Origin: Anaerolineales bacterium
GTDB lineage: Bacteria; Chloroflexota; Anaerolineae; UBA1429
Reading direction: 5' to 3'
Assembly (NCBI GenBank): GCA_039680625.1
Contig: JBDKSN010000075.1
Span: 1 to 54,744, forward strand
DNA: 54,744 nucleotides
The notes below the pieces were generated by a model. It ran no database searches. It was not told where the DNA came from and saw only the letters and a program-made list of their open reading frames with translations. Below are positions 3,895-36,546 of this stretch, piece after piece. Numbering within the stretch: position 1 is the stretch's first letter; every line of letters begins with the position of its first letter. A program made the position numbers and the translations under genes.

Positions 3895-6216
3895 CTAGCG
3901 AGATGCCGACGTGCTGGGCGAGCGGCTATCGCCCTCGCCATCCTCGTCTCTCGCTGGCAGCACGGCTCGTGAGCGGCCCCCCGTGCCCACTGGGCCAACC
4001 ACGCCCAACTCTTCGAGCTGATCCATCAGGCGCGCCGCGCGAGGATAGCCCACACGCAGCTGACGCTGGAGAAAAGAAGCCGAGGCTTGTTGCTTTTCGC
4101 GGACGATGGCCACCGCCTGAGCTAAGAGGCCATCGTCATCCTCTTCGCTCTCTTCGCCCAACGTCATGCCCTCCCAGGGCGGACGCTCTGCGGCGACGGC
4201 CTCGCCCGCCCCCTGATCACTCACCGAGAGAGCGTCGGCGGCCACCGCTGGCGCGGCGCTCTGCCAATAGCGCACCAGAGCCTGTACCTCTTGGTCAGAG
4301 ACATAACTGCCCTGGATGCGCAACAGCTTGGCCGAGTCGGGCGGCATGAAGAGCATATCGCCGTTGCCGAGGAGCTTTTCCGCGCCGGGGCAGTCGAGGA
4401 CCACGCGGGAGTCCACCTGCGCCGTCACGGCAAAGCTGATGCGCGCGGGGAAATTGGCCTTGATCAGGCCCGTGACCACGTCCACCGAGGGCCGCTGCGT
4501 AGCCACGACCAGATGGATGCCCGTCGCCCGCGCCAACTGCGCCAGGCGGCAGATGATGCGCTCGACATCGTCGGGCGCGGCGAGCATCAGGTCGGCTAGC
4601 TCGTCGATCAGCACGACGATGCTGGGCTTGGTCGGCTCGCCGCGCGCTGCAGCCTTTCGGTTGTAAGAGCGCAAGTCGCGCACGCCGAGCTGGGCGAACT
4701 CTTGGTAGCGGCGGTCCATCTCGGTCAGCAGCCAACGCAGGGCGACGATGACCTGTTCCGCCTCGGTCAGCGCTGGAGAGAGCAGGTGTGGCAGCCCATT
4801 GAAGCGCGTCAGCTCGACGCGTTTGGGGTCTACCAACAAGAGGCGCAGCTGTGCGGGAGTGTTCTGCAGCAACAACGAGGCGATGATGGCGTTGAGGCAC
4901 ACGCTCTTGCCCGTGCCGGTGGCCCCGGCCACCAACAGGTGAGGCATGCGGGCCAGATCAGCCACCACTGGCTCTCCCGAGACGCCTCGCCCCAAGCCCA
5001 TACGCAGGTTCGAGTGCACACGCTGGAACTCGGCCGACTCGACCACGCCGCGCAGGCCCACCAGCGCCTTCTCGCGGTTGGGCACCTCGATGCCCACCAC
5101 GGCACGACCCGGGATCGGCGCCTCGATGCGGATGGGCGCTGCCGCCAAAGCCAACGCCAGGTCATTCTGCAGGCCCGAGATCCTGTTCACGCGCACCTTT
5201 TGCCGCTGGGTGCTGCCCGTGTTGTCTTGCCGCTCGACGTAGCCCGGCTCGACGCTGTATTGCGTGACCACCGGCCCGTGGCTCCAGCCAACGACGGTGG
5301 CGGGCACGCCAAAGGCAGCTAGGGTCTGCTCGATCACCTCGGCTTGATGGCGGCACTCGGCCTCGTCTCCGGCGATGGGATGGTCGGGGGCGAGCAGCGT
5401 CAGTGGTGGCAGCTCTGTGGCGACCGCCTTTGCCGACACGTTGCGCTCCTCTTGGGTGGGCGTTGGGCTCGCTACCTGGGTGGCCGCCGCTCGTTCCTTT
5501 GGACGTGGTCGAGAGGCCTGGCGAGACGCCGTCGGCTCTGGGCGTGCTGCACGATCCTTGGCGGCAATAACGGGCGCTGTACGGGGTGTTGCGGCCTGAT
5601 AGTAGCGCCGACGGTTGATGCGGTCGCGGATGGCCGTGCCCACACGCGCCCAAGCCCAGCGAACGTACCAACCGAGCAACGGCCAAGGCAGCGGCACGAT
5701 GAGGTGCAGCCCCCAGACCAGCAGGGCGAGCAGCAACAGTGTCGCCACCGCCTCACCAAGCAGCGGCACGAGGAGCTGATACAGCGCCCACCCGACCCAG
5801 CCACCCCCGTGGCCGTCTTGCGCCAGGCCATACGGCTCGGCGGTCGAGAGCACGTGCACCAGACCGAGCACCGCCAGCAAGACGAGCTCGCCGCCGAGCA
5901 CAGCTCGCCAGCGGATGGGCCACTTTTGCCGCAGCGCACCGCGCAGGTAGAGGAAGGCGCCGAGGCCGAACAGTAGCAGCGATAGCGGATAGGCGCCGAT
6001 GCCGACGGCGCGTCGCAGCCCCATCCAGACGCGATAGCCCAGCTCACCCTTGCCACCCGAAAAGACGGACAGGCAGATGATCAGCCCTAGGGCCATCAAG
6101 ACCAGGCCCCAGGTCTCCTGGCGCTTGAGCCAGGGGGGGCATTGCCAGCGAGGCTGCGTTTGTGCTTGGCGTTTCTTGGTTGGCATGATCCTAATCAAGA
6201 TGAGGGACCGGCTCAC
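3895..6216 (-). CDS. ftsK: DNA translocase FtsK/SpoIIIE
   Basis: 773 aa with N-terminal TM helices, a Pro/Ala-rich linker, Walker A LLVAGATGTGKS, VLIDELADL, HLVVATQRPS and a C-terminal winged-helix gamma domain (LLAQAVAIVREKQQASASFLQRQLRVGYPRAARLMDQLE). The start may instead be ATG 6186 (MPTKKRQ). Confidence 0.9.
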   Translation of the reverse strand: MSRSLILIRIMPTKKRQAQTQPRWQCPPWLKRQETWGLVLMALGLIICLSVFSGGKGELGYRVWMGLRRAVGIGAYPLSLLLFGLGAFLYLRGALRQKWPIRWRAVLGGELVLLAVLGLVHVLSTAEPYGLAQDGHGGGWVGWALYQLLVPLLGEAVATLLLLALLVWGLHLIVPLPWPLLGWYVRWAWARVGTAIRDRINRRRYYQAATPRTAPVIAAKDRAARPEPTASRQASRPRPKERAAATQVASPTPTQEERNVSAKAVATELPPLTLLAPDHPIAGDEAECRHQAEVIEQTLAAFGVPATVVGWSHGPVVTQYSVEPGYVERQDNTGSTQRQKVRVNRISGLQNDLALALAAAPIRIEAPIPGRAVVGIEVPNREKALVGLRGVVESAEFQRVHSNLRMGLGRGVSGEPVVADLARMPHLLVAGATGTGKSVCLNAIIASLLLQNTPAQLRLLLVDPKRVELTRFNGLPHLLSPALTEAEQVIVALRWLLTEMDRRYQEFAQLGVRDLRSYNRKAAARGEPTKPSIVVLIDELADLMLAAPDDVERIICRLAQLARATGIHLVVATQRPSVDVVTGLIKANFPARISFAVTAQVDSRVVLDCPGAEKLLGNGDMLFMPPDSAKLLRIQGSYVSDQEVQALVRYWQSAAPAVAADALSVSDQGAGEAVAAERPPWEGMTLGEESEEDDDGLLAQAVAIVREKQQASASFLQRQLRVGYPRAARLMDQLEELGVVGPVGTGGRSRAVLPARDEDGEGDSRSPSTSASR

Positions 6217-6351
6217 GAGCCCGATCTCGTCTCGTCACCCATCCTCGCCCCAGCCCGGGCGAAGGCGACGCGAAACCTGGTTCTAGCCGCTGTAACCGCA
6301 CTATAGGCCGAGGCCGCCGTCCGGGCCAGCGAGGCTTGGGTTAGGCCACGC

Positions 6352-7374
6352 TCAGTAAAGCAACATGGCTGGGCCGCCATCGTCGGAATCGTCCGAAGCG
6401 TCAGAGTCGTCGGTCGAGCCTTGACCGTTGGCGCGCTTCATGCTGAGGCTGAGGCGATGTCGGGTACTATCGATGCGCAAGATCGAGACCAGCACCCGGT
6501 CGCCCGCACTGGCGACATCCGCCGGGTGCCGGATGTGCTCATCCGAGATCTCGGAGATGTGCACGAGCCCTTCGAGGCCCTCCTCGATCTGCGCAAAGAG
6601 CCCAAAGTCGACCACATTCGTGACGGTAGCCTCGACGACGTCGCCTACCTGATAGTGCTGTTCGGCCAATGCCCAGGGGTTGGGCTGCAACCGCTTCAGG
6701 CTCAAGCCCACATGCCGCGTTGACCGATCGACCGAGAGCACGCACTCCTGGACCTCATCGCCGATGTGCAGCAGATCGCCCGGAGTCGTCACCCGCCCCC
6801 AAGACAGCTCGGAGATGTGGATCAGCCCGTCGAGCCCGCCCAGATCGACAAAGGCGCCGAAATCGCAGACGTTGCTCACTCGCCCGCGGCAGACGTCGCC
6901 CTCATTCAACTCCTCCAGCAGACGGATGCCGTCGGTCGGCCCCCACTGCGTGGCGCGCTCGGAGAACACCAGCCTGTTCCGCGCGCTGTCGAGCTCGATG
7001 ATCTTGACATCGAGCTCCTCGCCCACCCAGCGGATGAGCAGCTCTTCGCGCTGGCTTTCATCATCGACGAGCGGCACCTGTTTGAGCTGCGAGGCGGGGA
7101 CAAAGCCCTGCACCTCGCCCCAACGCACCAAGAGGCCACCGCGATTCCAGCCGGTGACGATGACGCTCAAGGTATCTCCCTGAGCATAATGGTGCTCGAG
7201 CTCATCCCAGGCTTGGGCCAACTCGGGCGAAAGGGGATAGACCCGCGCAGATTCTGCCTTGCCGCCCAACGGGACCGATCTCTCGGCACCCGGTTCGAGG
7301 GCGGTTTGCGCAGCGAGCAACTCGCGCGCACGCACGATAAAGCGCTGCAAGCCATCCAAACTGTAAACAGTCAT
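6352..7374 (-). CDS. S1 RNA-binding domain protein (three S1 repeats, acidic C-terminal tail)
   Basis: The repeats are GDTLSVIVTGWNRGGLLVRW..GFVPASQL, GDVCRGRVSNVCDFGAFVDLGG.DGLIHISELS and GDVVEATVTNVVDFGLFAQIEEGLEGLVHISEIS. The ORF is open to 7527. I prefer ATG 7374 (MTVYSLDG) because GAGGA sits about 10 nt upstream. The start is uncertain. Confidence 0.8.
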   Translation of the reverse strand: MTVYSLDGLQRFIVRARELLAAQTALEPGAERSVPLGGKAESARVYPLSPELAQAWDELEHHYAQGDTLSVIVTGWNRGGLLVRWGEVQGFVPASQLKQVPLVDDESQREELLIRWVGEELDVKIIELDSARNRLVFSERATQWGPTDGIRLLEELNEGDVCRGRVSNVCDFGAFVDLGGLDGLIHISELSWGRVTTPGDLLHIGDEVQECVLSVDRSTRHVGLSLKRLQPNPWALAEQHYQVGDVVEATVTNVVDFGLFAQIEEGLEGLVHISEISDEHIRHPADVASAGDRVLVSILRIDSTRHRLSLSMKRANGQGSTDDSDASDDSDDGGPAMLLY

Positions 7375-7563
7375 GCCACCATGATCCTCTGCCTGAAGCA
7401 TTCGGTTGCGTCTGGCGGGCCAAGCTACTAGCGGCCAGTTGTCGATCCTATCCGTGTGCAGTACTCTAGTGAGGGATTGCCCGAGCGTCAAGCGCAAGCG
7501 GCAGCCCGGGTGAACAGGCCTGGGCATCGAGCCAGACGCTCAACAGATCAGCAAAGTGAGCGT

Positions 7564-7783: not shown

Positions 7784-7856
7784 CGGGGTGTGGCGCAGTT
7801 GGCAGCGCGCAGCGTTTGGGACGCTGAAGTCGGAGGTTCGAGTCCTCTCACCCCGA
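7784..7856 (+). tRNA. tRNA-Pro (anticodon TGG)
   Basis: Manual cloverleaf: acceptor CGGGGTG/CACCCCG, D arm GCGC-AGTTGGCA-GCGC, anticodon arm CAGCG-TTTGGGA-CGCTG (UGG with G37), T arm GGAGG-TTCGAGT-CCTCT, discriminator A. No CCA is encoded. Confidence 0.9.
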
Positions 7857-7861
7857 CTTAT

Positions 7862-7934
7862 GCGGGCGTAGCTCAGTTGGCAGAGCTCCTGCCTTCCAAG
7901 CAGGTTGTCGCGCGTTCGAATCGCGTCGCCCGCT
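7862..7934 (+). tRNA. tRNA-Gly (anticodon TCC)
   Basis: Manual cloverleaf: acceptor GCGGGCG/CGCCCGC, D arm GCTC-AGTTGGCA-GAGC, anticodon arm CCTGC-CTTCCAA-GCAGG (UCC), T arm GCGCG-TTCGAAT-CGCGT, discriminator T. The next bases are CCT, so no full CCA is encoded. Confidence 0.9.
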
Positions 7935-23441: not shown

Positions 23442-24560
23442 CTAGTCGAGCGCCCGCTCATCCAACCCCAGGGGCAGCGGTGCGGGGCGCGTAAACGTGC
23501 TCGTCACTTGATGATAGGCGCCCATCGCCGCACACTCCAAAAAGCCCTGCATGAGGTCGAGCACGTGATAGGCCTGCGCGCCGGTTTGCCGATGAGGGCG
23601 CCCCTCAAGGAGCGCATAGGCCATATCGACCACGCCCAGTCCCCATTGCTCCCGACCGGCGGTGTGACCGTGGGTCAGCGACACCTCCTCGAACGGGCCA
23701 CGCTCGCGCGCAAGGAGCACCGGCCCACCCAACGTGTTGGGATCGGGCACGCCCAACGTGCCCTCGGTGCCATAGATCTCGATGTTCGGCAGGCGCGAGG
23801 CGTAGGTCGCAAAGGTGGTGATGATCGTGCCGATCGCGCCATTGGCGAACTCGAGCGTGCCCGTCACGTGGTCGGGCGTCTCGACGATGATCTTGTGCCC
23901 CTTGAGCGGCTCGCTCGTGATGGTGCGCTCGCCGATCAAGATGCCCGCGGCGCCGCACTGCCGCACCACTGGCCCCAACAAGGTGGTCAACGCCGTGAGA
24001 TAGTAAGGCCCCATGTCGAACATCGGCCCGGCGCCCGGCTTGTAATAGTACTCGGGGTTGGGGTGCCAGTGTTCGTGCCCCCGGCTCATCATAAAGGCCG
24101 CTGCGGCCACGGGCCGGCCGATGGCGCCCTCATCGAGCAGCTTGCGGCAGGTCTGCAGGCCGCCGCCCAAGGGCGTGCTAGGGGCCGCGCCCACGAGGAC
24201 ACCAGCCGCTTGCGCGGCAGCGAGGATCTCGGCGCCCTCGGTGCGGTTGACGGCCAGGGGCTTTTCGGTAAAGACGTTCTTGCCCGCGGCGATGGCCGCC
24301 AGGCTGATGTCCTTATGAGCCTGAGGGTTGGTCAGGTTGACAACGATGCGGATCTCGGGCATGGCCAACAGCTCATCCACCGTGCAGGGGCGCGGGATGC
24401 CATACTCTGCGGCGGCCTGGGCGGCGCGCTCGGGGAAGGCATCGGCGCAAGCCACGCACTCGAGGATGTCAAAGCTCTGTACCGTGCGGAAATAGTTGCC
24501 GCTGATGTTGCCGCAACCGATGATGCCGATCTTGACGGTATTCACAAGTGCGCTCCTCAT
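23442..24560 (-). CDS. Gfo/Idh/MocA family NAD(P)-dependent oxidoreductase
   Basis: 372 aa with Rossmann motif KIGIIGCGNISGNY and the EKPLA motif (VFTEKPLAV). Confidence 0.9.
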   Translation of the reverse strand: MRSALVNTVKIGIIGCGNISGNYFRTVQSFDILECVACADAFPERAAQAAAEYGIPRPCTVDELLAMPEIRIVVNLTNPQAHKDISLAAIAAGKNVFTEKPLAVNRTEGAEILAAAQAAGVLVGAAPSTPLGGGLQTCRKLLDEGAIGRPVAAAAFMMSRGHEHWHPNPEYYYKPGAGPMFDMGPYYLTALTTLLGPVVRQCGAAGILIGERTITSEPLKGHKIIVETPDHVTGTLEFANGAIGTIITTFATYASRLPNIEIYGTEGTLGVPDPNTLGGPVLLARERGPFEEVSLTHGHTAGREQWGLGVVDMAYALLEGRPHRQTGAQAYHVLDLMQGFLECAAMGAYHQVTSTFTRPAPLPLGLDERALD

Positions 24561-24578: not shown

Positions 24579-27500
24579 TCACGCGTCACAATGTTGGATG
24601 ATCACCTGGCCATAGAGGCCCCAGTCTTTGACCACATAGTCCGGCGTAAAGGTCTCGTCGGTGCGGCGGAACGAGCGCCAGTCGGTCCAGGCCTCACGGC
24701 CGGTGGCCAGGTGTAGCGGGCCGAGCATGTTGCGCGGGCTGCTCACGACCTCGATACCGATGTTGTTGACGCCCGGCCCGAGGTGGTCGGTGATGTCCAG
24801 CCCGTTCGCGGATGCCCAGGGAATGTGCCCGGCGACCGCACCGTTGACATGTACCGCCACATCCACCGCCTGATAGTCCTGCAGATAGACGCGCACACGC
24901 CGGCCCAGCTCCGGCCGGTAGACGAAGGTGCCCTCATAGATCATGCTGCCGGCATAGTGCAAGTAGCCTTGGCTCGTCCAATCGCCAAAATGCAGGCTAT
25001 CGGGTTCGGCAATGATCGCCCGGTCCGTATCGATGCCGAAATCACCGATGAGGAAGCAGTCCTCTAGCTCCATGTGGTTGGTGTAGAGGCACGAGAGCTC
25101 GAGCCAGTTCTCGCCGGGCAACAGCTCGGGCAACAGCACCTTGTGGAACGAGCGATCGAGATACCAGCCCAACGCCCGGTTCGGCACGGGTTCGTCGTTG
25201 AGGGCGATGCCGAATTGCGCCGCGCCTTCGACCAGCAGGTAGACGGGCGCCTCGGGCACATCGCGCACCTCAAAGGTGAACTCGAGCGCCACCGGCGTGT
25301 CGTCATTGGGATGGGGCTTGGTGGCCCACTTGTAGCGCTGCGGCAGCCCGTTGTAATAGTTCTGCCGCATGCCTAGCATCTCGCGCACCTCGCTCTGCGC
25401 CCGCCAGACCTCCATCTCGTCTGACCACTCGCGGTCACCCACGGTGTAGCAGCAACGGTCGAGGGTGAGTACGTTCGGGTCGGTGCGCTTGAGGGTGCAC
25501 TCGGGACCGATGAACTGCGCTCGGGTCACATGGCGCGACACGCGGAACACCGGCGCGATGCGCTCGACGGCGCCTGCCACCGGCTCACCTTGCGGATCGA
25601 TCACATAAAGCAACGACCCCGCCGGCCCGATATTGGCAAAGAAGCGCACCTGGCCATCGAGCACGTCGGCGGGCACAGGCGTGGCCTTGCCCGTGAGTGG
25701 ATCCCACTGCTCGACGCGGCCCTTCCCTTGCAGGCGCACCTCGAGGTCATAGCCGTTGCTGCGGTCGCCATTAGTGATGAAATAAGCCTGACAACCATCG
25801 ATGTCGCGCTGCATGTAGAGCAACGAGGCGGCCTCTTGGCCATAGATCGTGCGCAAGCTCACGCGACGCGCCACAGCAGCCTCGAGAGCGCCTTGCAACT
25901 GGCTGGCGTCAGCGATGCGCGTCACGCCAGGCTGTTGCCACAGCGCAGACAATCGCTCGGCAGGCTCAGCCTCGATCAGAGAGGGCGGCTCGCCCACCAC
26001 GATCACCTTGCCGCCGGCGGCCAGATAGCCATCGAGAACCGCGACGGTCGAGCCGAGGAGCGTCTTCATCTCGGGCGGGACCACCACGACCCGATAGGGC
26101 GCGCGCCCCACATAGAGCATATCGCCCTCGATGCGGCACGAGTCGGCCATGATCTGCTCATCGCCCAGGTCGCAATCATAGTGCGTAGCCAGCACAGCCT
26201 GGATAAAGTCGTTGTAGCGCTCGCCGTAGGCATCCACCTGATCTTGGCTGGCCACCCCTTCGCCGAGCATGGCCCAGCCCGTGCTGACCGGGTGCAGCAA
26301 GAGCACATCGCGCACGGCCTCGCCCGCCGTCGTGATGCTGCCCACGCGCGCGAAATAGTCCTCGACGACCTTGTTGTACTTCCACCAGGTCGTGTTGTAG
26401 TTGAAACTGGGCGGATAGTCGCGCTTGCGGCAGCCGCGCAGACTATAGAGCGCCAGGTGTTGGCAGCGCAGGTTGACGCCCAGCACATATTGCCAATCGC
26501 CCACCCACTTTTGGCCCTCGAAGGTGAACTCCCAGCTCGAGCAGCCATAGGTCTCGGACAACACGCGCTGGCGCCCGAACTGATTGGCCACGCTCGAACA
26601 CTGCTTGACGGTGTTGAACTCGTGCGTCTGCTCGGTCAGCATGTCGATGCCGGGCACCTGTTGCCAGCGGTAGTGCGGCATGATCGCGCCACCGCGCATG
26701 ATCGCGAGGCCCAGCTCGGCCTCGCACAGGTAGTGTCCGGTAAACGCCAGGTTGTGTTCGCCGCACCACTCGCCCAACTGCTTGCTATAGGCCTCGGTAA
26801 AGCGTTGGCTGATGGTATACCAGTAGTCGTGGCGGGCCTTGGCGGCGCGCTCGCCGTCATAGAACAGCCAGGGCAGCACCTCGAGCAGGTCATAGCCGCG
26901 CCGCTCTTGGAAGAACTCGGGCAGCCCGTCGGTCCAGGGCAGGGCGCGTCGCCCAGAGGTCACCTGAACCGCGAACACATTCGGCTCGTCGGTAAAGATG
27001 CCCGGCACCGCGCCGCCCCAATCACTGCCGATATCCTGGCGGTAGGCCTCGTAGGTGATGTCGCGGAAGGCCGCCACGGCGTCGGGGTTCAGGTTGTCGG
27101 CATAGGCATCGTCGTTGAACCACTCCGAGGGGCCTGACACCTCACGACGAAAGACCAGCAAGGTCTCGCCCTCGGCCAATGCTACGCCGCGCCGGATGCG
27201 CTTGGCGGCGGTGATCTGCCCATCGCTCACCGTTGCGCGGAACACTGCGAGCACATCCGCGTCGCCGGCAGGATAGCGGCTGGCTTGTTCGACGGTGACG
27301 ACCTTGGCGCGGAAGGCGTCTCCGCCGCGCGCGGGCACCAGGCCACCCGCGGCGCCTGAGGGCCAACGGTCCTCATCATAGAGCCAGGCGTTCATGCCCT
27401 CTTCGCGGGCGACGCGCACGCATTCGCGGATGCACTCCATCCACTCTGGCCCCATATACTCGGTCTCGAGGCCATCGCGCGAGTGCATGAAAAAGCCGCC

Positions 27501-27632
27501 CATGCCGTGGGCCTTCATGTCGCGGATCTGGCGGGCTAGCTCAGCGGGTTCGAGTCTGTCGTTCCATGACCAGAACGGCGCGCCTCGCAGCGTCGCGGGC
27601 GGGTCGGCAAAGGTCTTGCGCAGCGTGTCCAT
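24579..27632 (-). CDS. Large glycoside hydrolase (1017 aa); N-terminus resembles the GH106/alpha-L-rhamnosidase-like family (family assignment uncertain)
   Basis: RGAPFWSWNDRLEPAELARQIRDMKAHGMGGFFMHSRDGLETEYMGPEW...AWLYDEDRWPSG is an N-terminal pattern I associate with large uncharacterised GHs. There is no signal peptide. Confidence 0.7.
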   Translation of the reverse strand: MDTLRKTFADPPATLRGAPFWSWNDRLEPAELARQIRDMKAHGMGGFFMHSRDGLETEYMGPEWMECIRECVRVAREEGMNAWLYDEDRWPSGAAGGLVPARGGDAFRAKVVTVEQASRYPAGDADVLAVFRATVSDGQITAAKRIRRGVALAEGETLLVFRREVSGPSEWFNDDAYADNLNPDAVAAFRDITYEAYRQDIGSDWGGAVPGIFTDEPNVFAVQVTSGRRALPWTDGLPEFFQERRGYDLLEVLPWLFYDGERAAKARHDYWYTISQRFTEAYSKQLGEWCGEHNLAFTGHYLCEAELGLAIMRGGAIMPHYRWQQVPGIDMLTEQTHEFNTVKQCSSVANQFGRQRVLSETYGCSSWEFTFEGQKWVGDWQYVLGVNLRCQHLALYSLRGCRKRDYPPSFNYNTTWWKYNKVVEDYFARVGSITTAGEAVRDVLLLHPVSTGWAMLGEGVASQDQVDAYGERYNDFIQAVLATHYDCDLGDEQIMADSCRIEGDMLYVGRAPYRVVVVPPEMKTLLGSTVAVLDGYLAAGGKVIVVGEPPSLIEAEPAERLSALWQQPGVTRIADASQLQGALEAAVARRVSLRTIYGQEAASLLYMQRDIDGCQAYFITNGDRSNGYDLEVRLQGKGRVEQWDPLTGKATPVPADVLDGQVRFFANIGPAGSLLYVIDPQGEPVAGAVERIAPVFRVSRHVTRAQFIGPECTLKRTDPNVLTLDRCCYTVGDREWSDEMEVWRAQSEVREMLGMRQNYYNGLPQRYKWATKPHPNDDTPVALEFTFEVRDVPEAPVYLLVEGAAQFGIALNDEPVPNRALGWYLDRSFHKVLLPELLPGENWLELSCLYTNHMELEDCFLIGDFGIDTDRAIIAEPDSLHFGDWTSQGYLHYAGSMIYEGTFVYRPELGRRVRVYLQDYQAVDVAVHVNGAVAGHIPWASANGLDITDHLGPGVNNIGIEVVSSPRNMLGPLHLATGREAWTDWRSFRRTDETFTPDYVVKDWGLYGQVIIQHCDA

Positions 27633-27672: not shown

Positions 27673-28467
27673 TCACTCGGCGATCACCGGATTGCGCAGC
27701 ACACCGAGGCCGGCGATCTCGATCTCGATCACATCGCCCGCCCGCAAGAATACGGGCGGCTTGCGGGCAAAGCCCACCCCTGAGGGCGTGCCCGTCATGA
27801 TCACCGTCCCCGGCAGCAGCGTGAAGGCGTCTGACAGGTAGGCGATGATCTGAGCACAGCCAAAGATGAGGTCGTTGGTGTTGGAATGCTGCATCTCGCG
27901 GCCATTCAGGCGCGACATGATCTCGGCGTTATCGGGATCCAGGTCGGTCTCGATCCACGGGCCGAGCGGGGCAAAGGTATCGAACGACTTGCCTCGCGCC
28001 CACTGCCCGCCATCGAGGCGCAGCTGGCAGTCTCGCGCGCTCACGTCATTGGCGCACGTATAGCCCAGCACATAGTCGAGCGCTGTCTCGGGCGTGACGT
28101 GCCGCGCCTTTTTGCCGATGACGATGGCCAGCTCTGCCTCATAGTCCACCTCATCGGGGGCCACTCGCGGCAAGAGGATGGGGTCTTCTGGGCCGCACGC
28201 CGCCGTGGTTGCCTTGATAAAGAGCACGGGCCGCTCGGGGATGGGGGCGCCACTCTCGATGGCATGAGCGCGATAGTTGAGGCCGATGGCCAGGATGTTG
28301 GGCGGCTCGACGGGCGCGAGCAGGCGCACGGCTGCCAGGGGGCGAGTCTCGCCGCTAGGCCGCCAGGAGCCAAAGGGGGAACCATCGAGCAGCTCGACCT
28401 GCTGGTCAGCGGTGAGGCGAGCATAGCGGGCAACGCCGCCAACAGCGACACGGGCAAAACGAGTCAC
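27673..28467 (-). CDS. Fumarylacetoacetate hydrolase (FAH) family protein
   Basis: GAGGAGG RBS then GTG 28467. Motifs: ILAIGLNYRAHA, DYEAELAIVIGK, NDVSARD and GTVIMTGTPSGVG. Confidence 0.85.
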   Translation of the reverse strand: MTRFARVAVGGVARYARLTADQQVELLDGSPFGSWRPSGETRPLAAVRLLAPVEPPNILAIGLNYRAHAIESGAPIPERPVLFIKATTAACGPEDPILLPRVAPDEVDYEAELAIVIGKKARHVTPETALDYVLGYTCANDVSARDCQLRLDGGQWARGKSFDTFAPLGPWIETDLDPDNAEIMSRLNGREMQHSNTNDLIFGCAQIIAYLSDAFTLLPGTVIMTGTPSGVGFARKPPVFLRAGDVIEIEIAGLGVLRNPVIAE

Positions 28468-28571
28468 AAGTAGAGCCTCCTCTGTGTCGGCTGAGGCGCA
28501 TTCTAGCCCCACGCGAATACAGCGTCAACGAGACCTTGTGGCCCGGCTAGGCGCGCAAGGGCTGTTCTTTT

Positions 28572-28600: not shown

Positions 28601-28678
28601 GAGTTGGCTTTAGGGTGCGCAGCCCTTTGCCCATGAGCAGAGGCCATCGCTCTCTATCGCTTCTCATCGTGGAGCTGG

Positions 28679-31045
28679 ATGATGCCAACCGACCGCGTGA
28701 ACCGTCTACGCCAGCAGAGCATCGACGCCAAGCCGACCATCTCGATCGAGCGTGCGCGCCTGATGACCGACTTTTACCGCGAGAATCTGGGCAAGTATTC
28801 TACCCCCGTGCTGCGAGCGCGTTCTTTCTACTACCTCTGTCAACACAAGACGGTCTACATCGGCGACGATGAGCTGATCGTCGGCGAGCGTGGGCCAGCG
28901 CCCAAGGCCACGCCGACCTATCCCGAGCTCACCTGCCACAGCGCCCAAGACCTGCGTATCCTCCGCTCGCGCCCCATGACGAGCTATGCCATCAGCGACG
29001 AGGATATCGCGCTCTATGAGCGCGAGGTCATCCCCTACTGGCAGGGCCGCTCGATGCGCGACCGCATCTTTGGGGCGATGTCGCCCCAGTGGCTGGCCTA
29101 TTACGACGCGGGCTTGTTCACCGAGTTCATGGAGCAGCGCGCCCCCGGCCACACCGTGCTCGACGACAAGATCTATCACCGCGGCCTGCTCGACCTCAAG
29201 GGCGACATCGCCGCCGAGCTGGCGGCGCTCGATTTCGTCGGCGATCCCCAGGCCACAGATCGGCGCGAAGAGCTGCTGGCGATGGACATCGCCTGCTCTG
29301 CCGCCATCCTCTATGCCGAGCGCCACGCCGACCTCGCCGAACAGTTGGCTGCCCACGAACCCGACCTGCGCCGTCGCGCCGAGCTGCGGCAGATCGCCAC
29401 GGTGTGTCACTGGGTGCCAGCTCACGCGCCGCGCACCTTTTGGGAAGCGCTGCAGATGTATTGGTTCGTCCACCTGGCCGTCATCACCGAGCTCAACGGG
29501 TGGGATTCGTTCAACCCGGGTCACCTCGATCAACACCTCGGCCCCTTCTATGCGGCCGACCTCGCCTCGGGTGCGCTGGACCGCGAGGGCGCTCAAGAGC
29601 TGCTGAGCTGTTTATGGTGCAAGTTCAACAACCAGCCCGCGCCGCCCAAGGTGGGTGTGACCGCCGCTGAGAGCGGCACCTACAACGACTTTGCCAACAT
29701 CAACATCGGCGGCATGGATGTCGAGGGGCGTGACGCGGTCAACGACGTGTCTTACCTGATGCTCGAGGTGATCGAAGAGCTACACCTGCTCCAGCCGGGG
29801 AGCAACATCCAGCTCTGCACGGCCAACTCGGATGACTTTGTACGAGCAGCGTGTCGGGTCATTCGCCGCGGCTTTGGCTATCCAGCAGTGTTCAACGCCG
29901 ACATGGTGGTGCAAGAGCAGCTGCGCATGGGCAAGGCGCTCGCCGATGCACGCCAGGGCGGAACCAGCGGCTGCGTCGAGACGGGCTGCTTTGGCAAAGA
30001 GGCCTACATCCTCACGGGCTACCTCAACCTGCCCAAGGTGCTCGAGCTGGCCCTGAACAACGGCCGCGACCCACGCACGGGCCAACAACTGGGCCCGCGG
30101 ACAGGCGAGGCGACAGCGATGGGCACCTTCGCCGAGCTGTATGCCGCCTTTGAGGCGCAACTGCATGCAGTGGTCGAGTGCAAGATCGCCGGCAACAACT
30201 ATATCGAGCGCATGTATGCCCAGCACGCGCCGGCGCCCTTCCTTTCGGCGATCACTGCCGACTGCATCGCCAGAGGGTTGGACTATAACGCGGGCGGCGC
30301 GCGCTACAACACGAGCTTTATCCAGGGCGTAGGCATCGGCACGATCACCGACTGCCTCTCGGCCATCCAGACGCACGTGTATGACCAAGAGACAGTGTCG
30401 ATGGCCAGGCTCTTGTCCGCCCTAGCCGCCAATTTCGCCGGGGATGAGCCGCTGCGCCAGCAGCTCGCCAACCGCACGCCCCGCTATGGCAATGATGACG
30501 ACGCCGCCGACGCCTTGATGCAGCGGGTATTCGAGAGTTTCTACCGCGAGGTAGAGGGCCGCCCCAACCTTCGCGGGGGCCGCTATCATATCGATATGCT
30601 CCCCACGACGTGCCACATCTATTTCGGCTCGGTGATGGGCGCCTCGGCCGACGGGCGCCTGGCGGGTCGGCCGCTCTCGGAGGGCATCTCGCCCGTGCAA
30701 GGCGCCGACCGTCGTGGGCCTACCGCTGTGGTGCGCTCGGCAGCCAAGATGGACCATCGGCGTACGGGCGGAACGTTGCTCAATCAAAAGTTCCAGCCGC
30801 ATGTGTTGGCCGATGAGCAAGGCCTGGCGGGCCTGGTGGCCCTGATCCGCACGTATTTTCGCCTGGGCGGTCACCATATCCAGTTCAACGTGATCGATGC
30901 CGACACGCTGCACGAGGCGCAGGCACACCCTGACGAGTATCGCGGCCTCCTGGTGCGCGTCGCGGGCTACAGCGACTATTTCTGCGATCTCAGCCGCGAC
31001 CTGCAAGAAGAGATCATCGCCCGTACGGCGCAAGAGGGCTTTTGA
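28679..31045 (+). CDS. Glycyl radical enzyme, PFL2/glycerol(diol)-dehydratase-like 1,2-eliminase class
   Basis: 788 aa. Glycyl radical motif LLVRVAGYSDYF (Gly763, nt 30965-30967). Thiyl loop TSGCVETG (Cys432 nt 29972-29974, Glu434 nt 29978-29980). The N-terminus, ISIERARLMTDFY...GDDELIVGERG, is typical of the PFL2 family. Confidence 0.9.
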   Translation: MMPTDRVNRLRQQSIDAKPTISIERARLMTDFYRENLGKYSTPVLRARSFYYLCQHKTVYIGDDELIVGERGPAPKATPTYPELTCHSAQDLRILRSRPMTSYAISDEDIALYEREVIPYWQGRSMRDRIFGAMSPQWLAYYDAGLFTEFMEQRAPGHTVLDDKIYHRGLLDLKGDIAAELAALDFVGDPQATDRREELLAMDIACSAAILYAERHADLAEQLAAHEPDLRRRAELRQIATVCHWVPAHAPRTFWEALQMYWFVHLAVITELNGWDSFNPGHLDQHLGPFYAADLASGALDREGAQELLSCLWCKFNNQPAPPKVGVTAAESGTYNDFANINIGGMDVEGRDAVNDVSYLMLEVIEELHLLQPGSNIQLCTANSDDFVRAACRVIRRGFGYPAVFNADMVVQEQLRMGKALADARQGGTSGCVETGCFGKEAYILTGYLNLPKVLELALNNGRDPRTGQQLGPRTGEATAMGTFAELYAAFEAQLHAVVECKIAGNNYIERMYAQHAPAPFLSAITADCIARGLDYNAGGARYNTSFIQGVGIGTITDCLSAIQTHVYDQETVSMARLLSALAANFAGDEPLRQQLANRTPRYGNDDDAADALMQRVFESFYREVEGRPNLRGGRYHIDMLPTTCHIYFGSVMGASADGRLAGRPLSEGISPVQGADRRGPTAVVRSAAKMDHRRTGGTLLNQKFQPHVLADEQGLAGLVALIRTYFRLGGHHIQFNVIDADTLHEAQAHPDEYRGLLVRVAGYSDYFCDLSRDLQEEIIARTAQEGF

Positions 31046-31199: not shown

Positions 31200-31955
31200 A
31201 TGTCTGGTCACAGCAAATGGGCCACCATCAAGAGAGCCAAGGGTGCCGCTGATGCCAAGCGCGGGGCGGTGTTCACCAAGCTCGGCCACGAGATCGCCTT
31301 GGCTGCTCGTGAGGGTGGGCCTGACCCCGATGCGAATTTCCGCTTGCGTATCGTCTTGGACAAGGCCCGGGCGGCCAACATGCCCAAAGACAATATCGAG
31401 CGAGCGATCAAACGGGGCAGCGGCGACGGTGGCGAGGGTACCACGCTGGAAGAGTACATCTATGAGGGCTATGGCCCCGGTGGCTCGGCCATTCTGGTGC
31501 AGACGCTGACCGACAACCGCAACCGGACCGTGGCCGAGGTGCGCCACGTGTTCTCTCGCTACGGCGGCAACTTGGGCGCCGATGGCTGCGTAGCCTGGAT
31601 GTTTGAACGCAAAGGCGTCATCACGATCAACCCCGAGGGCCAAGACCCCGATGAGATCATGCTGGTGGCTATCGATGCCGGCGCCGACGATGTCGAAGTG
31701 GGCGACGGTGAGATCGAAGTGACTACCGCCTTGCAGGATTTCAAGGCCGTGCTGGATGCGCTCCTCGCGGCGGGCTTGAAGGTAGAGAGCTCGTCGGTCG
31801 CCTGGGTGCCGAACTCGCAGATCGACATGTCCGACGCCGAGGCTATCCGCAACCTCAAGCTCGTCGAGGCGCTCGAAGATCTGGATGATGTCCAGGAGGT
31901 CTTTACCAACCTCAACATCACCGACGAGGTTATGGACAAGTATCAGGCGGCCTAG
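31200..31955 (+). CDS. yebC: YebC/PmpR family DNA-binding transcriptional regulator
   Basis: MSGHSKWATIKRAKGAADAKRG..FTKL...NMPKDNIERAIKRG...YEGYGPGG.AI. An extended -10 (TGgTATAAT) is at 31146-31154. Confidence 0.95.
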   Translation: MSGHSKWATIKRAKGAADAKRGAVFTKLGHEIALAAREGGPDPDANFRLRIVLDKARAANMPKDNIERAIKRGSGDGGEGTTLEEYIYEGYGPGGSAILVQTLTDNRNRTVAEVRHVFSRYGGNLGADGCVAWMFERKGVITINPEGQDPDEIMLVAIDAGADDVEVGDGEIEVTTALQDFKAVLDALLAAGLKVESSSVAWVPNSQIDMSDAEAIRNLKLVEALEDLDDVQEVFTNLNITDEVMDKYQAA

Positions 31956-31960
31956 GCCGC

Positions 31961-32458
31961 ATGTTGATCTTGGGGCTGGATCCAGGGTTGGCGACCACCG
32001 GCTATGGCTTGGTGGAAGGCGAGGGCGCCGAGATGCGGATGGTGGCCTATGGCGTGATCGAGACGCCGGCGCACATCCCCATCGGCGACCGACTGGCCCA
32101 GCTCTATGCCGCGATCACCGCGCTCCTCGTCCGCTATCGCCCTCAGGCGGCGGCGGTCGAGGAGCTGTTTTTTGCCACCAATGCGCGCACGGCCATCATG
32201 GTCGGCGAAGGGCGTGGCGTCATTCTGTTGGCCCTGGCCCAGGCGGCCGTGCCGGTGATCGAGTACACGCCGCTGCAGATCAAACAGGCCGTCACCGGCT
32301 ATGGCCTGGCCGACAAGGCCCAGGTGCAACAGATGGTGCAGCTCTTGTTGTCTCTAGAGGCCGTGCCCAAGCCCGATGACGCTGCCGATGCCTTGGCGGC
32401 CTCGATCTGTCATTATAATGCGACGCGCTATGCCGAGCTCGCCCGCGACGTGGAGTAA
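31961..32458 (+). CDS. ruvC: Crossover junction endodeoxyribonuclease RuvC
   Basis: MLILGLDPGLATTGYGLVE...AVEELFF...EYTPLQIKQAVTGYG.ADK.QV..MV...PKPDDAADALA. Confidence 0.95.
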   Translation: MLILGLDPGLATTGYGLVEGEGAEMRMVAYGVIETPAHIPIGDRLAQLYAAITALLVRYRPQAAAVEELFFATNARTAIMVGEGRGVILLALAQAAVPVIEYTPLQIKQAVTGYGLADKAQVQQMVQLLLSLEAVPKPDDAADALAASICHYNATRYAELARDVE

Positions 32459-32461
32459 AAC

Positions 32462-33040
32462 ATGATCGCCAGCCTTTGCGGACAGGTGCAGTATCGTGAA
32501 GAGGACGCCCTGGTCGTGGTGGTGCAGGGCGTGGGCTACCGCGTGCACGTGGCTGATAGCGTCCTCGATGCCGTGCCTCACGTGGGCGCTCACGTCGAGC
32601 TGGTCACCGAGATGGTGGTGCGCGAGAACGAGATCGCGCTCTATGGCTTTCAAACAAGCGAAGAGCGCGACCTGTTTCGCTTGCTGCTGACCGTCAGCGG
32701 CGTGGGGCCACGCACGGCCATCGCCGTCCTCTCTACATTCTCGCCCGAGACGCTCCGCGCTGCTGTAGCGCATGACGATGTGGCGGCGTTGACGCGCATC
32801 CCAGGCATCGGGCGCAAGACGGCGCAACGCCTGGTGCTCGACCTCAGAGACCGAGTGGGCGTGCCCACCCAGCCCTGGCAGCCCGGGGCGCCGTCTGAGG
32901 GCGACGTGGATGTCCTCCAGGCACTGACGGCGCTCGGCTACAGCCTGGCAGAGGCCCAAGCGGCTCTAGTCGCCGTGCCCGCCGAGGCGACGACGCTGGA
33001 TGAGCGCATCCTCGCTGCGCTGCGCTCTCTCGGGGCCTAG
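32462..33040 (+). CDS. ruvA: Holliday junction branch migration complex subunit RuvA
   Basis: MIASLCGQV...VVVVQGVGYRVHV...LYGF....ERDLFRLLLTVSGVGPRTA...IPGIGRKTAQRLVLDL. No ruvB follows in this window. Confidence 0.95.
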   Translation: MIASLCGQVQYREEDALVVVVQGVGYRVHVADSVLDAVPHVGAHVELVTEMVVRENEIALYGFQTSEERDLFRLLLTVSGVGPRTAIAVLSTFSPETLRAAVAHDDVAALTRIPGIGRKTAQRLVLDLRDRVGVPTQPWQPGAPSEGDVDVLQALTALGYSLAEAQAALVAVPAEATTLDERILAALRSLGA

Positions 33041-34347
33041 GCCCCGAATAGCCCCTGGAACCAGATACCCAACTCGGGGAAAAGCCCAAGGGCCAGCAGG
33101 CAGAGGGCCAAGGCCAACAGTAACAGGCTCAGCCAGAGCGGCTCGCGACGGCTGCCCGGCGGCGGCGTAGAGCCCCACGAAGTGACGACGATCCGTGTGA
33201 CGCCCCAGGCAGGGCCAAGGGCACTCAGCACACAGACCCATGTCCACGGCGAACGCAGGTCAGCCATGCCGAGGATGGCTATGCGGCTGGCGTAGCCGAC
33301 GGTAGGGGGCAGGCCAGCGAGCGAGAGGCCGGCGATCCACACGGCCGTGAGCGTGAGCGGCGCCCGCCGAAAGGCACCAGCCAGCGGACGTAGGTCATCG
33401 GTGCCAAAGCAATAGGCCAGCACGCGAGCGGCCACCCATAACGTTGCGCAAGCCAGAGCGCGGTAGGCCAGATGTTGCGTGGCCAGGTTTAGCGCACCAG
33501 CGGATTCCGCACTCATCGCCAGGGCAGCGATGCCCACGTCGGCCAGAGCGGCATAGCCGGTCACGGCGCTGAGCTCTCGCGGCAGCAGGGCGCCCACGGC
33601 GCCATAGAGCAACGTAGCCACTCCCCCCCAGCGCAAGAACAAGCCCCAAGTTGCCAAGTCGCTCAGGGCGCTCAACTCGTTCAGGCGCAGCGAGGCGAGC
33701 AACCCCAAAGCGCACACCGCCAGAAAGGCGCCTGTGGGCCGCGAAGCGCGGCTCAGCGGCGGAGCCCACACGCCAAAGGGCAACACACCCAACACCAGGG
33801 CAAGCCCAAAGAGCGCCGCCGGCTGGCCCAAGAAGGTCAACGATAGCGGACTCTCGCCCCGCGCAGCCTCAGACACCCAGCCAGCAACCAGCAAGAGCAG
33901 CGTGCCGCTCAACAGCACGATGATCGTGCGCATGATGAGCTCGGGCGAGGTGGGGGCCAGCAAGCAGCAGGCGATGCCCAGCACTGCCAGCGCCATGAAC
34001 GCACCGGCGAGCTGCAGGCTCGTGGCGCATGCGGCAACCATCAGCAGGCCGAACGTGGCTAGCGCGCTCGACCACACTAGCGGGCTTTCGGGGGCGAGCC
34101 AACCGCCGCCCATCAGCAAGCCCAGCGCAACCGACAGCACACTCACGTAGAAAGCGCTCTGGGTACTCAGGGCCAGCGAGCGGCCCATCAAGTTCAGCGC
34201 CTCTTGGCCAGCAGCCAACGGTGCAAGCCCAGCCACCAAGAGACAGGCCAGCGCCGAGATCGACGCGGCAATCTGTCGCACCTGGCGCACCGGCCAGACA
34301 GCTAGCGCCGCCACAAAGGGGATGGCCAGCAAGGCGATGAGGGGCAT
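33037..34347 (-). CDS. Polytopic membrane protein, degenerate Mrp/complex-I antiporter-like (NuoN/MnhD-like) subunit, lysine-free
   Basis: 436 aa and highly hydrophobic. Remnant motifs are LPFGVWAPPLSRASRPTGAFL and IAGLSLAGLPPTVGY. It has an ATGA overlap with the upstream gene. Confidence 0.6.
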   Translation of the reverse strand: MPLIALLAIPFVAALAVWPVRQVRQIAASISALACLLVAGLAPLAAGQEALNLMGRSLALSTQSAFYVSVLSVALGLLMGGGWLAPESPLVWSSALATFGLLMVAACATSLQLAGAFMALAVLGIACCLLAPTSPELIMRTIIVLLSGTLLLLVAGWVSEAARGESPLSLTFLGQPAALFGLALVLGVLPFGVWAPPLSRASRPTGAFLAVCALGLLASLRLNELSALSDLATWGLFLRWGGVATLLYGAVGALLPRELSAVTGYAALADVGIAALAMSAESAGALNLATQHLAYRALACATLWVAARVLAYCFGTDDLRPLAGAFRRAPLTLTAVWIAGLSLAGLPPTVGYASRIAILGMADLRSPWTWVCVLSALGPAWGVTRIVVTSWGSTPPPGSRREPLWLSLLLLALALCLLALGLFPELGIWFQGLFGA

Positions 34348-34952
34348 CAGCCGGCCTCTTCTTGGTTGAGGCGCTGCACCTGATGCTCAGACAGCACCCC
34401 GATCACCAGAGCCAGGCCGATCTCGAGCAGGCCCAACAGGGCAGTCATCAGCAGGCCGTTGTCCATGTACAGGAAAGCGACCTCAAAGCCATTGAGCGCC
34501 GTCATGGTGGCCAGCCCCTGGCCCAACACCGAGCTTTCGGTGGCCGCGAGCAACATGCCCGCAAGCAAGAGCCAGTAGCAGGTCAACAGTGCGTCGGCGG
34601 GCAGGCCCGGCAGGCGAAACGCCCTTTGCAGGCCAGCCGCAGCAAAGCCAGCCAGGGCCACACAGAATATCCCAAATAGGCTGCCCATGCGCGCCAGTGG
34701 GTCGACCGCATCACGACGACGTTGGCGTTGCAGATGCGCCACCGAGCCAGCCGCGACCAAGAGGATCAGGCAGGCTGCCAACCCCAGCCCGAGTTGAGCA
34801 TAGAGCACCGGCCGCAGCAACGTCTGGCTGACCAGCACGGTACGCAACAAGACCTGCAGCGCCAGACCCAAGACGCCAAGCCTACGGGCCGAAAACGCCA
34901 GCAGCCCTGTGGCCAGGCAGAGCACGATGATCACCTGCGTGCTTGTCAGCAT
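34347..34952 (-). CDS. Polytopic membrane protein (201 aa, about 6 TM helices), unknown family, lysine-free
   Basis: Hydrophobic ORF translationally coupled to both neighbours, with a 13-nt gap upstream and an ATGA overlap downstream. Confidence 0.5.
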   Translation of the reverse strand: MLTSTQVIIVLCLATGLLAFSARRLGVLGLALQVLLRTVLVSQTLLRPVLYAQLGLGLAACLILLVAAGSVAHLQRQRRRDAVDPLARMGSLFGIFCVALAGFAAAGLQRAFRLPGLPADALLTCYWLLLAGMLLAATESSVLGQGLATMTALNGFEVAFLYMDNGLLMTALLGLLEIGLALVIGVLSEHQVQRLNQEEAG

Positions 34953-34965
34953 ATCGGGCCGCCGT

Positions 34966-36546
34966 TCACAGGCCGCTCTCCAGAGCGACGAGCAGCATCA
35001 CCACCACCCATAGCAATCCCCACAAGATGATCAGCCGTTCTTCCAAGAGGCCAAACAGGCGATACAAACCCTCTGCAGCCACGCCGAACGCGTGGTCGAG
35101 AGCCAGGGCGGCGCCCTCCCAGGCGCCCTGCCACACGGGGCGCACAGACTCTCGCCAGCGGTTGGCGCGCCGATTGGCCCGCAGCGCTGCGGGCGAAAGC
35201 GCCAACACAAAGCCGACGATGATGGGCAATAACAGCAGTACAAGGCTCACCACCACCCACTGGGCTGGCGCGCCGAACAGGGGCAGGCCAGAGCCGGCGA
35301 TACCCGGCACCACGCCGAGCACCAAGCCCAGCGCCGATAATGCTGCCCCCAAGCCCCAAGCGAGCCAGTCATTGGGCGGCTGCGAGCGCGTGGTCTGGCG
35401 AAGCCAGGGCATGAGCAACACCGCCGCCGTGGCGCAGGCGAGTGCCGCCCCCAGCACCTGCCAGAACGCCAACCAGCCGTCGCCCAAAGCCAGCGTCGCC
35501 GCCAGATCTTGCCAGCGGGCCACGGCCACTCCACCGGGCGCCAACCCGGCCAGCGAAGCCACGGCGACGATGCGCGGCAGCTGGTACGCCCCGGACTCCT
35601 CGACCCGTTCGAGCACCACCAGGGCCGCATAGGCGACGACCGCGCCCAGCAGTGCCAGCGTGGCCGCGCCGGCTCCCTCCCCAGCGTAGAGCACGCCCGC
35701 CAGCAGCGCCTGCCCAAAAGCCAGGCCATACAGCGCATCGAGGGCGCGACCGCGCGAGCCCCACAGCGCCGTCGACACGCCGGCAAAGAGCACGATGAGC
35801 GTGCCCAAGACGAGCAAGGGCGTCGCAACACGCGGGCTGAGAGCCGCTCCGCCCCCCAGAGTGCACAACAGATGCGCCGCCGTCACCGTGAGCGAGGCCA
35901 TTGTCGGCCAACGCAACGCCGGATAGCCCAGCAGTACGCCGCCCAAGCCCAGGGTGAAGGCAGCCGTGAGGATAGCGCCATAGGGCGGCGCCGCCGAGGC
36001 GTTGGCTGGCAGGCTCAACACCGCCGCCAGAGCGAGCGCCGCGAGAGCGCCGAGCACCCCCAACACGCCGAACACGGCAAAGGGGCCACGCGAGCCCGCC
36101 GGCAATGAGCCTTCGACCCACAGGATGACGATATCGAGCAGCCCAACAGCCAGAGCCGCGGCCAACGCATCCCGAGTGGCGAGGCACAGCAGCACCATGG
36201 CCACCAGCAGCGTCTCAGGCACTACACGGCGTTCTTCGCGAGGGTTGGCCAGGTGCGCAAGCGAGGCCAGCATCAGCACAGCCCCTTCGAGACGCGTGGC
36301 GTGATCCCACGCCAACGACAGGCCGTGATAGAGCCTGCCGGCGGGCACCGTCGCTGTGCTCGCTGGAAGCACCAGCACCACGAGCAGCAAGGCGACGTTG
36401 GCTCCCAGCCCGAATCGACGCGCCACGGTCGGCTGGCCGCGACGCAGCAGCGCCAGCCACACGACAGCGCCCAGAGTGGCGAGGGCAAAGGGGATAAGGG
36501 GCAACAGCATCCTGTCTCGATCCGTAAGTTGGCTGGATTCTAGCAC
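34966..36546 (-). CDS. Polytopic membrane protein (up to 526 aa), degenerate antiporter-like (NuoL/M-like) subunit, lysine-free
   Basis: Hydrophobic throughout. The remnant motif is VAVASLAGLAPGGVAV. The start is possibly ATG 36510 (MLLPLIPF). Confidence 0.55.
   Translation of the reverse strand: MLESSQLTDRDRMLLPLIPFALATLGAVVWLALLRRGQPTVARRFGLGANVALLLVVLVLPASTATVPAGRLYHGLSLAWDHATRLEGAVLMLASLAHLANPREERRVVPETLLVAMVLLCLATRDALAAALAVGLLDIVILWVEGSLPAGSRGPFAVFGVLGVLGALAALALAAVLSLPANASAAPPYGAILTAAFTLGLGGVLLGYPALRWPTMASLTVTAAHLLCTLGGGAALSPRVATPLLVLGTLIVLFAGVSTALWGSRGRALDALYGLAFGQALLAGVLYAGEGAGAATLALLGAVVAYAALVVLERVEESGAYQLPRIVAVASLAGLAPGGVAVARWQDLAATLALGDGWLAFWQVLGAALACATAAVLLMPWLRQTTRSQPPNDWLAWGLGAALSALGLVLGVVPGIAGSGLPLFGAPAQWVVVSLVLLLLPIIVGFVLALSPAALRANRRANRWRESVRPVWQGAWEGAALALDHAFGVAAEGLYRLFGLLEERLIILWGLLWVVVMLLVALESGL

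Follow-up and report, generated by a model that had tools for sequence, protein, structure and literature searches.

The stretch analyzed here, called the window, comprises all of contig JBDKSN010000075.1 (C75; 54,744 nt) from an Anaerolineales assembly of 2.8 Mb in 218 contigs that is 99.7% complete. This genome is designated G000, contigs C108, C168, C206, C17, C49, C112, and C120 belong to it as well, and other G numbers denote comparison genomes. The subject is a gene at positions 28679 to 31045 that encodes a glycyl radical enzyme (GRE), very probably trans-4-hydroxy-L-proline dehydratase (HypD), together with the remotely encoded activase that may serve it. The gene and its features are as follows.

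28671..28674, plus strand: GGAG ribosome-binding site, 7 nt before the ATG at 28682 (read from the sequence)
28679..31045, plus strand: hypD, very probably trans-4-hydroxy-L-proline dehydratase, 788 aa (NF043068, PDB 6vxc, active-site residues, dN/dS)
28688..30628, plus strand: PFL-like ten-stranded barrel domain, residues 4-650 (Pfam PF02901, 755.9 bits)
29969..29980, plus strand: Cys loop GCVE, residues 431-434, with thiyl Cys432 and Glu434 (translation; aligns to Cys434-Val435-Glu436 of Clostridioides difficile HypD)
30677..30985, plus strand: glycyl radical domain, residues 667-769 (Pfam PF01228, 124.5 bits)
30956..30973, plus strand: Gly loop RVAGYS, residues 760-765, with the radical site Gly763 at nt 30965-30967 (translation)

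The frame is open throughout, with all 788 codons intact, and a profile search of the genome recovered the same PFL-like span at residues 4-650. Translation and Pfam domains thus agree with the first-pass annotation, which had described a 788-aa GRE with Cys432, Glu434, and Gly763 and had placed it in the 1,2-eliminase class from its Cys-x-Glu loop, a placement that is correct. The second ATG (28682) is probably the true start, since it is preceded by a GGAG motif at a distance of 7 nt and the orthologue in G001, of the same genus, begins MPTDRV. A promoter and terminator scan of the hypD strand gave nothing exceeding shuffle expectation, and an Rfam search of the window matched only two tRNAs, with no riboswitch or further RNA element close to hypD.

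The protein matched the NCBIfam equivalog NF043068 with 1238 bits (cut-off, 1100), an alignment joining residues 4-786 to positions 1-783 of the 784 in the model, and scored no more than 549 bits with any other specific NCBIfam model. Among solved structures, C. difficile HypD (PDB 6vxc) gave 1027 bits over 781 collinear residues, Clostridium butyricum glycerol dehydratase gave 498 bits (query residues 3-784 against chain residues 9-784), and the match to the choline trimethylamine-lyase structure was 483 bits. The active site of C. difficile HypD comprises the Cys loop Cys434-Val435-Glu436, the essential acid-base residues His160, Asp278, and Asp339, the carboxylate ligands Ser334, Tyr450, and Thr645, the aromatic contacts Phe340, Phe152, and Trp277, and the charge partners Arg156 and Lys326 (PMC7077986). 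Inspection of the substrate pocket, as the first-pass annotation had proposed, found all 15 HypD active-site residues to be identical in the window protein at the C. difficile position minus 2 (in C. difficile numbering, F152, R156, H160, W277, D278, K326, S334, D339, F340, C434, V435, E436, Y450, T645, and G765). The two scores and the fully conserved substrate pocket are the grounds on which the protein is assigned, with high probability, to HypD. Its nearest genomic relatives are in metagenome-assembled genomes (MAGs) of Chloroflexota/Anaerolineae, at 72-79% identity.

The first-pass annotation had noted that the protein is nearly collinear with C. butyricum glycerol dehydratase. The collinearity is real, and that enzyme (PDB 1r8w) shares the GRE eliminase fold, a length of 787 aa, a CxE Cys loop, and the Gly loop RVAGYS; HypD is nonetheless the better fit. 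Ser332, Asp276, and Asp337 of the window protein correspond to the HypD-specific Ser334, Asp278, and Asp339, and glycerol dehydratase has Phe where HypD has Ser334 (PMC7077986). With 498 bits set against 1027 and a pocket of the HypD type, a glycerol or diol dehydratase was ruled out.

It was also considered whether the protein is a HypD-like eliminase with another substrate, such as another isomer of hydroxyproline or some related cyclic amine. This would fit its separate clade and its missing activase, as the HypDs of the window, G001, G002, L046, and G015 stand apart from other Anaerolineae HypDs in the tree, and the NF043068 score of 1238 lies below those of G039 (1357) and G033 (1316). 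The score still exceeds the curated equivalog cut-off, however, and every residue that contacts Hyp (trans-4-hydroxy-L-proline) or is essential by mutagenesis is identical, making another substrate very unlikely. The likeness to C. difficile HypD (6vxc/6vxe, NF043068) extends over the Cys loop GCVE, the Gly loop RVAGYSD, and the 15 active-site residues, and the same conversion of Hyp to 1-pyrroline-5-carboxylate (P5C) would be expected of an enzyme with this sequence. The glycyl radical at Gly763 would generate a thiyl radical on Cys432, which would take a hydrogen atom from Hyp, and water would be eliminated with the aid of Asp276, His158, Glu434, and Asp337 to leave P5C. The P5C could then be reduced to proline by the ProC of the genome (P5C reductase, TIGR00112), which is present in two parts: C49:51007-51426 lies at the end of its contig and covers model positions 1-142, and C112:5-379 lies at the start of its contig and covers positions 140-263. 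From this division of proC over their ends, C49 and C112 are probably adjacent in the chromosome.

Pairwise ratios of nonsynonymous to synonymous substitution rates (dN/dS) between the window hypD and two same-genus and two same-family orthologues ranged from 0.10 to 0.28, with values of 0.14-0.16 within the genus, and the G+C content at third codon positions (GC3) of 0.82 is in line with neighboring genes. By these measures hypD is an intact, functional-looking gene under purifying selection. The first-pass annotation had offered as one alternative that the enzyme is a relic. In this reading the GRE lost its activase or was never activated, its gene decaying or put to a nonradical use, and the housekeeping surroundings and the lack of both an adjoining activase and nearby Hyp-pathway genes would suit such a history. 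The intact frame, catalytic and binding residues, and loops, the low dN/dS across five genomes, a GC3 like that of the neighbors, and the retention of orthologues in 13 genomes of the family all speak against a relic, which is highly improbable and was rejected.

Linkage of hypD to GRE activases

No activase is encoded at the locus, as the first-pass annotation had stated. A scan of all window open reading frames (ORFs) of at least 60 aa for CX3CX2C returned a single occurrence, in an 85-aa shadow ORF (26636-26893, minus strand) that has a low GC3 of 0.63 and lies antisense to a real gene, and a genome search with the GRE-activase model TIGR02494 gave no match on C75. C. difficile differs in having a dedicated activase immediately upstream of hypD; the window has none within at least 23 kb, the minimum distance of hypD from both contig ends, with neighbors sequenced on either side. 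The two loci also differ in that the window hypD has housekeeping neighbors and no pathway genes close by.

Across phyla, at 71 of the 78 informative HypD loci the gene directly before hypD, on the same strand and 9-160 nt away, encodes an activase; the other seven have no activase within 6 kb. The unlinked state requires at least seven changes on the HypD tree. All members of the clade formed by the window, G001, G002, L046, and G015 are unlinked, and a second, separate lineage of the family (G008 and G022) groups with Anaerolineae HypDs that have an adjoining activase. HypD was found in 13 of the 42 genomes of the family and never with an adjoining activase (0/13). Among 121 sampled genomes of the class, tallied by eye from coordinate tables, 16 HypD genes outside the family adjoin an activase and approximately 14 do not (two of the latter uncertain, at contig ends), and in the genomes with unlinked hypD the activase is often beside another, non-HypD GRE. 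Unlinked hypD is therefore a minority state overall and common in Anaerolineae. The first-pass annotation expected almost all GRE genes to adjoin their activase; for HypD this is true across phyla (71/78) and fails in this lineage (0/13 in the family; about 14/30 unlinked elsewhere in the class).

Calling GRE activases with TIGR02494 (cut-off, 174 bits) and GREs with the PFL-like PF02901, it was found that G000 holds four PFL-like GREs, namely the HypD on C75 and those on C168, C206, and C17, and two GRE activases. These activases, on contigs other than that of hypD, emerged from the genome-wide search that the first-pass annotation had recommended.

C108:225-1133: stand-alone GRE activase (TIGR02494, 347.7 bits)
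C168:17722-18537: GRE activase directly after the C168 GRE (TIGR02494, 289 bits, intact)

The C108 activase is intact, with CNLRCFWC at residue 31, CIGCGSCFKVC at 57, CVGCGTCADNC at 86, and the SAM-binding motif GGE at 135, the motifs including two ferredoxin-like CX2CX2CX3C clusters, and its dN/dS is 0.04-0.20. A third radical-SAM candidate (C120:8041-9093; 40 bits with TIGR02494) was rejected as an AmmeMemoRadiSam enzyme (377 bits with TIGR04337). It is the sole other PflA-like radical SAM protein in G000, and a similar weak match was seen once in each relative checked.

The GRE and activase on C168 (15221-18537) form a pair that is conserved in G001, G002, and G008. This GRE of 821 aa has a CxE-type Cys loop (GCWE) and the unusual Gly loop RMGGWCA, and its NCBIfam scores stay below every equivalog cut-off (best, the TIGR01774 subfamily at 414 bits); by sequence it looks like an uncharacterized eliminase-type GRE. 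The GREs of C17 (15624-17954, minus strand; 776 aa; Gly loop RVTGYSA) and C206 (2288-4597, minus strand; 769 aa; Gly loop RVTGFSA) are orphans whose Cys loops, GCNW and GCHW, respectively, lack Glu. Further unannotated ORFs lie beside the C206 GRE, and a search of the C17-type GRE against solved structures gave Escherichia coli PflD (162 bits) as the best match.

In relatives, the positions of hypD and the activase corresponding to that of C108 were as follows.

G001, same genus, one contig: hypD at 0.23 Mb, activase orthologue at 1.05 Mb, separation 816 kb
G022, same family, one contig: hypD at 1.13 Mb, activase (the only GRE activase) at 0.51 Mb, separation 627 kb
G048, same family: hypD on contig C2, activase on the same contig, separation 675 kb
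G015, same family: hypD on contig C8, activase on the same contig and opposite strand, separation 12.5 kb

The alternative of the first-pass annotation that an activase is encoded remotely is thus supported, as the two genes are 0.6-0.8 Mb apart in complete relatives. An artifact, in which a dedicated HypD activase was lost from the draft assembly, could be imagined from the 218 contigs, the division of proC over two contig ends, and the start of C108 just before its activase. However, hypD is far from the contig ends, completeness is 99.7%, and the single-contig genomes G001 and G022 are also unlinked and hold no extra activase. These complete genomes led us to reject an artifact, which is extremely unlikely.

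The C108 activase and its orthologues from five related genomes of the family form one clade (branch value 98 in an 84-sequence tree). At E ≤ 1e-6, a single GRE activase is present in each of G015, G022, G048, G016, G017, and G003, and in the HypD-bearing G015, G022, and G048 it is the C108 orthologue. The two other activases of G001 each adjoin their own GRE. In G001 and G002 the C108-type activase is solitary, with a divergent ABC exporter upstream and sugar-acid genes (enolase superfamily, UxuA, PfkB, and SIS) on the other side, a neighborhood syntenic with contig C108. In G052 and G024, of other genera, an orthologue with 65-68% identity lies in a tight same-strand cluster in the order C17-type GRE, activase, C206-type GRE; in G008 the orthologue comes after the C17-type GRE, and in G016 and G017 its direct neighbor is another GRE, carrying the loop RIGGYSD. 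All three genes are dispersed in the genus of the window, where G001 has the C17-type GRE at 1.98 Mb, the C206-type GRE at 1.83 Mb, and the activase at 1.05 Mb. The cluster of the other genera forms an operon, and in the genus of the window the activase has become dispersed from both GREs.

Candidate activators of HypD

The specificity of GRE activases depends largely on the Gly loop of the partner and has been little studied (PMC13450708, section 2.5). In the six genomes examined, the GREs without an adjoining activase carry the Gly loops RVAGYSD (HypD), RVTGYSA (C17 type), and RVTGFSA (C206 type), while the GRE with the loop RMGGWCA had its own activase adjoining in every case. The HypD loop of the window is the same as that in HypDs with an adjoining activase, e.g., that of G033. 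Because the three loops are alike, conforming to RV[A/T]G[Y/F]S, the C108 activase probably serves HypD as well as the C17- and C206-type GREs. The likeliest account of the locus is therefore an intact HypD whose radical at Gly763 would be installed in trans by the stand-alone C108 activase, shared with the two orphan GREs; that this activase acts on HypD with broad specificity is the best reading of the genomes compared.

Several observations weigh against this account. HypD shares just 27% identity with the C17- and C206-type GREs, and reported cross-activation is confined to near-identical GREs, such as PFL and TdcE, the HPADs, and BSS and IBSS (PMC13450708). On the HypD activase equivalog NF043069, which is its best specific model, the C108 activase scored 333 bits, below the cut-off of 425 and below the 398-413 bits of the HypD-adjacent activases of Anaerolineae, and a branch with a value of 99 in the 84-sequence tree divides it from 72 HypD-adjacent activases. 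The start of contig C108, 224 nt upstream of the activase, places the upstream neighbor off the assembly, and the C168-type activase stays a candidate activator in G000 itself.

The tree position and the NF043069 score also leave the C108 activase unsupported as a translocated HypD activase. It shares with the latter the CX3CX2C motif, two ferredoxin-like clusters, and a length of about 300 aa, and it differs in falling below the cut-off and outside the HypD-adjacent clade and in having C17/C206-type or RIGGYSD-type GREs as partners in other genera.

Activation of HypD by the C168 activase was weighed as a further possibility, since this is a bona fide GRE activase that is present and intact, and nothing within G000 separates the two candidates. 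The comparison with relatives does: G015, G022, G048, and further members of the family with HypD lack the C168 type entirely, yet their HypD is still under purifying selection, and the C168 type always adjoins its own GRE, whose loop RMGGWCA is unlike RVAGYSD. The C168 activase is thus an unlikely activator of HypD. For the preferred C108 activase, the closest known parallel is E. coli PflA, a single activase for several GREs (PflB and TdcE) that are encoded at different loci and share the Gly loop. E. coli GrcA is also activated by PflA. The clients in E. coli are closely related paralogues that share one identical loop, RVSGYAV, whereas the presumed clients of C108 are approximately 27% identical, have similar but nonidentical loops, and fall into different functional classes, a CxE eliminase and GREs whose Cys loops lack Glu.

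Neighborhood of hypD and its rearrangement

The other annotated features of the window are listed below; Pfam matches bear out the flanks given in the first-pass annotation, a divergent FAH hydrolase on one side and yebC-ruvCA on the other.

3895..7527, minus strand: ftsK and S1-domain genes (Pfam FtsK_SpoIIIE and S1)
7784-7856 and 7862-7934, plus strand: two adjacent tRNA genes (Rfam)
23442-24560: Gfo/Idh/MocA oxidoreductase, after the GH106-like gene
24579-27632, minus strand: 1017-aa protein with a weak partial match to GH106 alpha-L-rhamnosidase (84.6 bits)
27673-28512, minus strand: FAH-family hydrolase, divergent neighbor of hypD (Pfam PF01557, 237.7 bits, plus an Rv2993c-like N-terminal domain)
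31200-31955, plus strand: yebC (Pfam PF01709/PF20772)
31961-32458, plus strand: ruvC (Pfam PF02075)
32462-33040, plus strand: ruvA (Pfam PF01330/PF14520)

In G001, G002, and G015 the genes follow one another on the same strand in the order S1, ftsK, hypD, with a DUF72 gene preceding hypD in the genus of the window. The yebC-ruvC-ruvA genes do not adjoin hypD in these three genomes, and in same-genus genomes the FAH gene is arranged differently, approximately 7 kb away from hypD. From this gene order, a rearrangement is the event that separated hypD from ftsK/S1 in the window and placed it beside the FAH gene. In the window hypD is about 21 kb from ftsK/S1, and the DUF72 and 384-aa neighbors known from G001 are absent.

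Since their adjacency to hypD is not conserved, a functional link with the FAH hydrolase, the GH106-like protein, the Gfo/Idh/MocA oxidoreductase, or yebC-ruvCA was rejected. No Hyp-pathway-like genes were found around hypD in the window, G001, G002, or G015. Synteny of the GH106-like/oxidoreductase block extends to G001 and G002, and there was no evidence tying it to Hyp-rich glycoproteins. Homologues of this oxidoreductase adjoin each of the C17 and C206 GREs. A strong positive AT skew on the plus strand (0.18-0.38) at 32000-36000 falls together with genes on the minus strand (33037-36546), among them one with a Proton_antipo_M domain (membrane antiporter/NADH-quinone oxidoreductase). The skew may stem from the T-rich codons that encode hydrophobic proteins.

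Numbers of GREs and activases in the family

Across the 42 genomes of the family, 177 PF02901 matches were identified against 59 activase matches, both counts being inflated by fragmented MAGs. G017 (99% complete, 30 contigs) has eight GREs and one activase, and G016 (95% complete, 40 contigs) has 10 GREs and one activase. The GRE loops in G017 are RIGGYSD, RVSGYSQ, RVSGLSS, RVGGFSA, RVSGWSA, RVTGFSA, and RVGGYSE. One G017 copy, on its contig C20, is an open frame of 538 aa that looks truncated, and one G016 copy, on its contig C13, has a reported in-frame TAG. A literature search on GRE/activase ratios in Anaerolineae found no paper.

We somewhat favor, from these gene counts and loops, a system in which one broad-specificity activase serves up to 8 to 10 scattered and diverse GREs, including HypD, the C17/C206-type enzymes, and uncharacterized eliminase-like proteins, and in which incoming hypD genes lost a redundant activase. 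Such a system of one activase and many GREs would extend to this Anaerolineae family and to part of the class.

HypD itself is already known and abundant, and the main value of the window copy is as a record of Hyp catabolism among uncultured Anaerolineae. The recognition of partners by GRE activases is acknowledged to be poorly understood (PMC13450708), and the lineage offers a concrete candidate for a generalist. If the proposed system is real, its activase is a natural generalist and a counterexample to the pairing of one GRE with one activase that is used in annotation and reconstitution. A generalist activase would help to activate orphan GREs in vitro, and in Anaerolineae the assignment of GRE function from gene adjacency fails.

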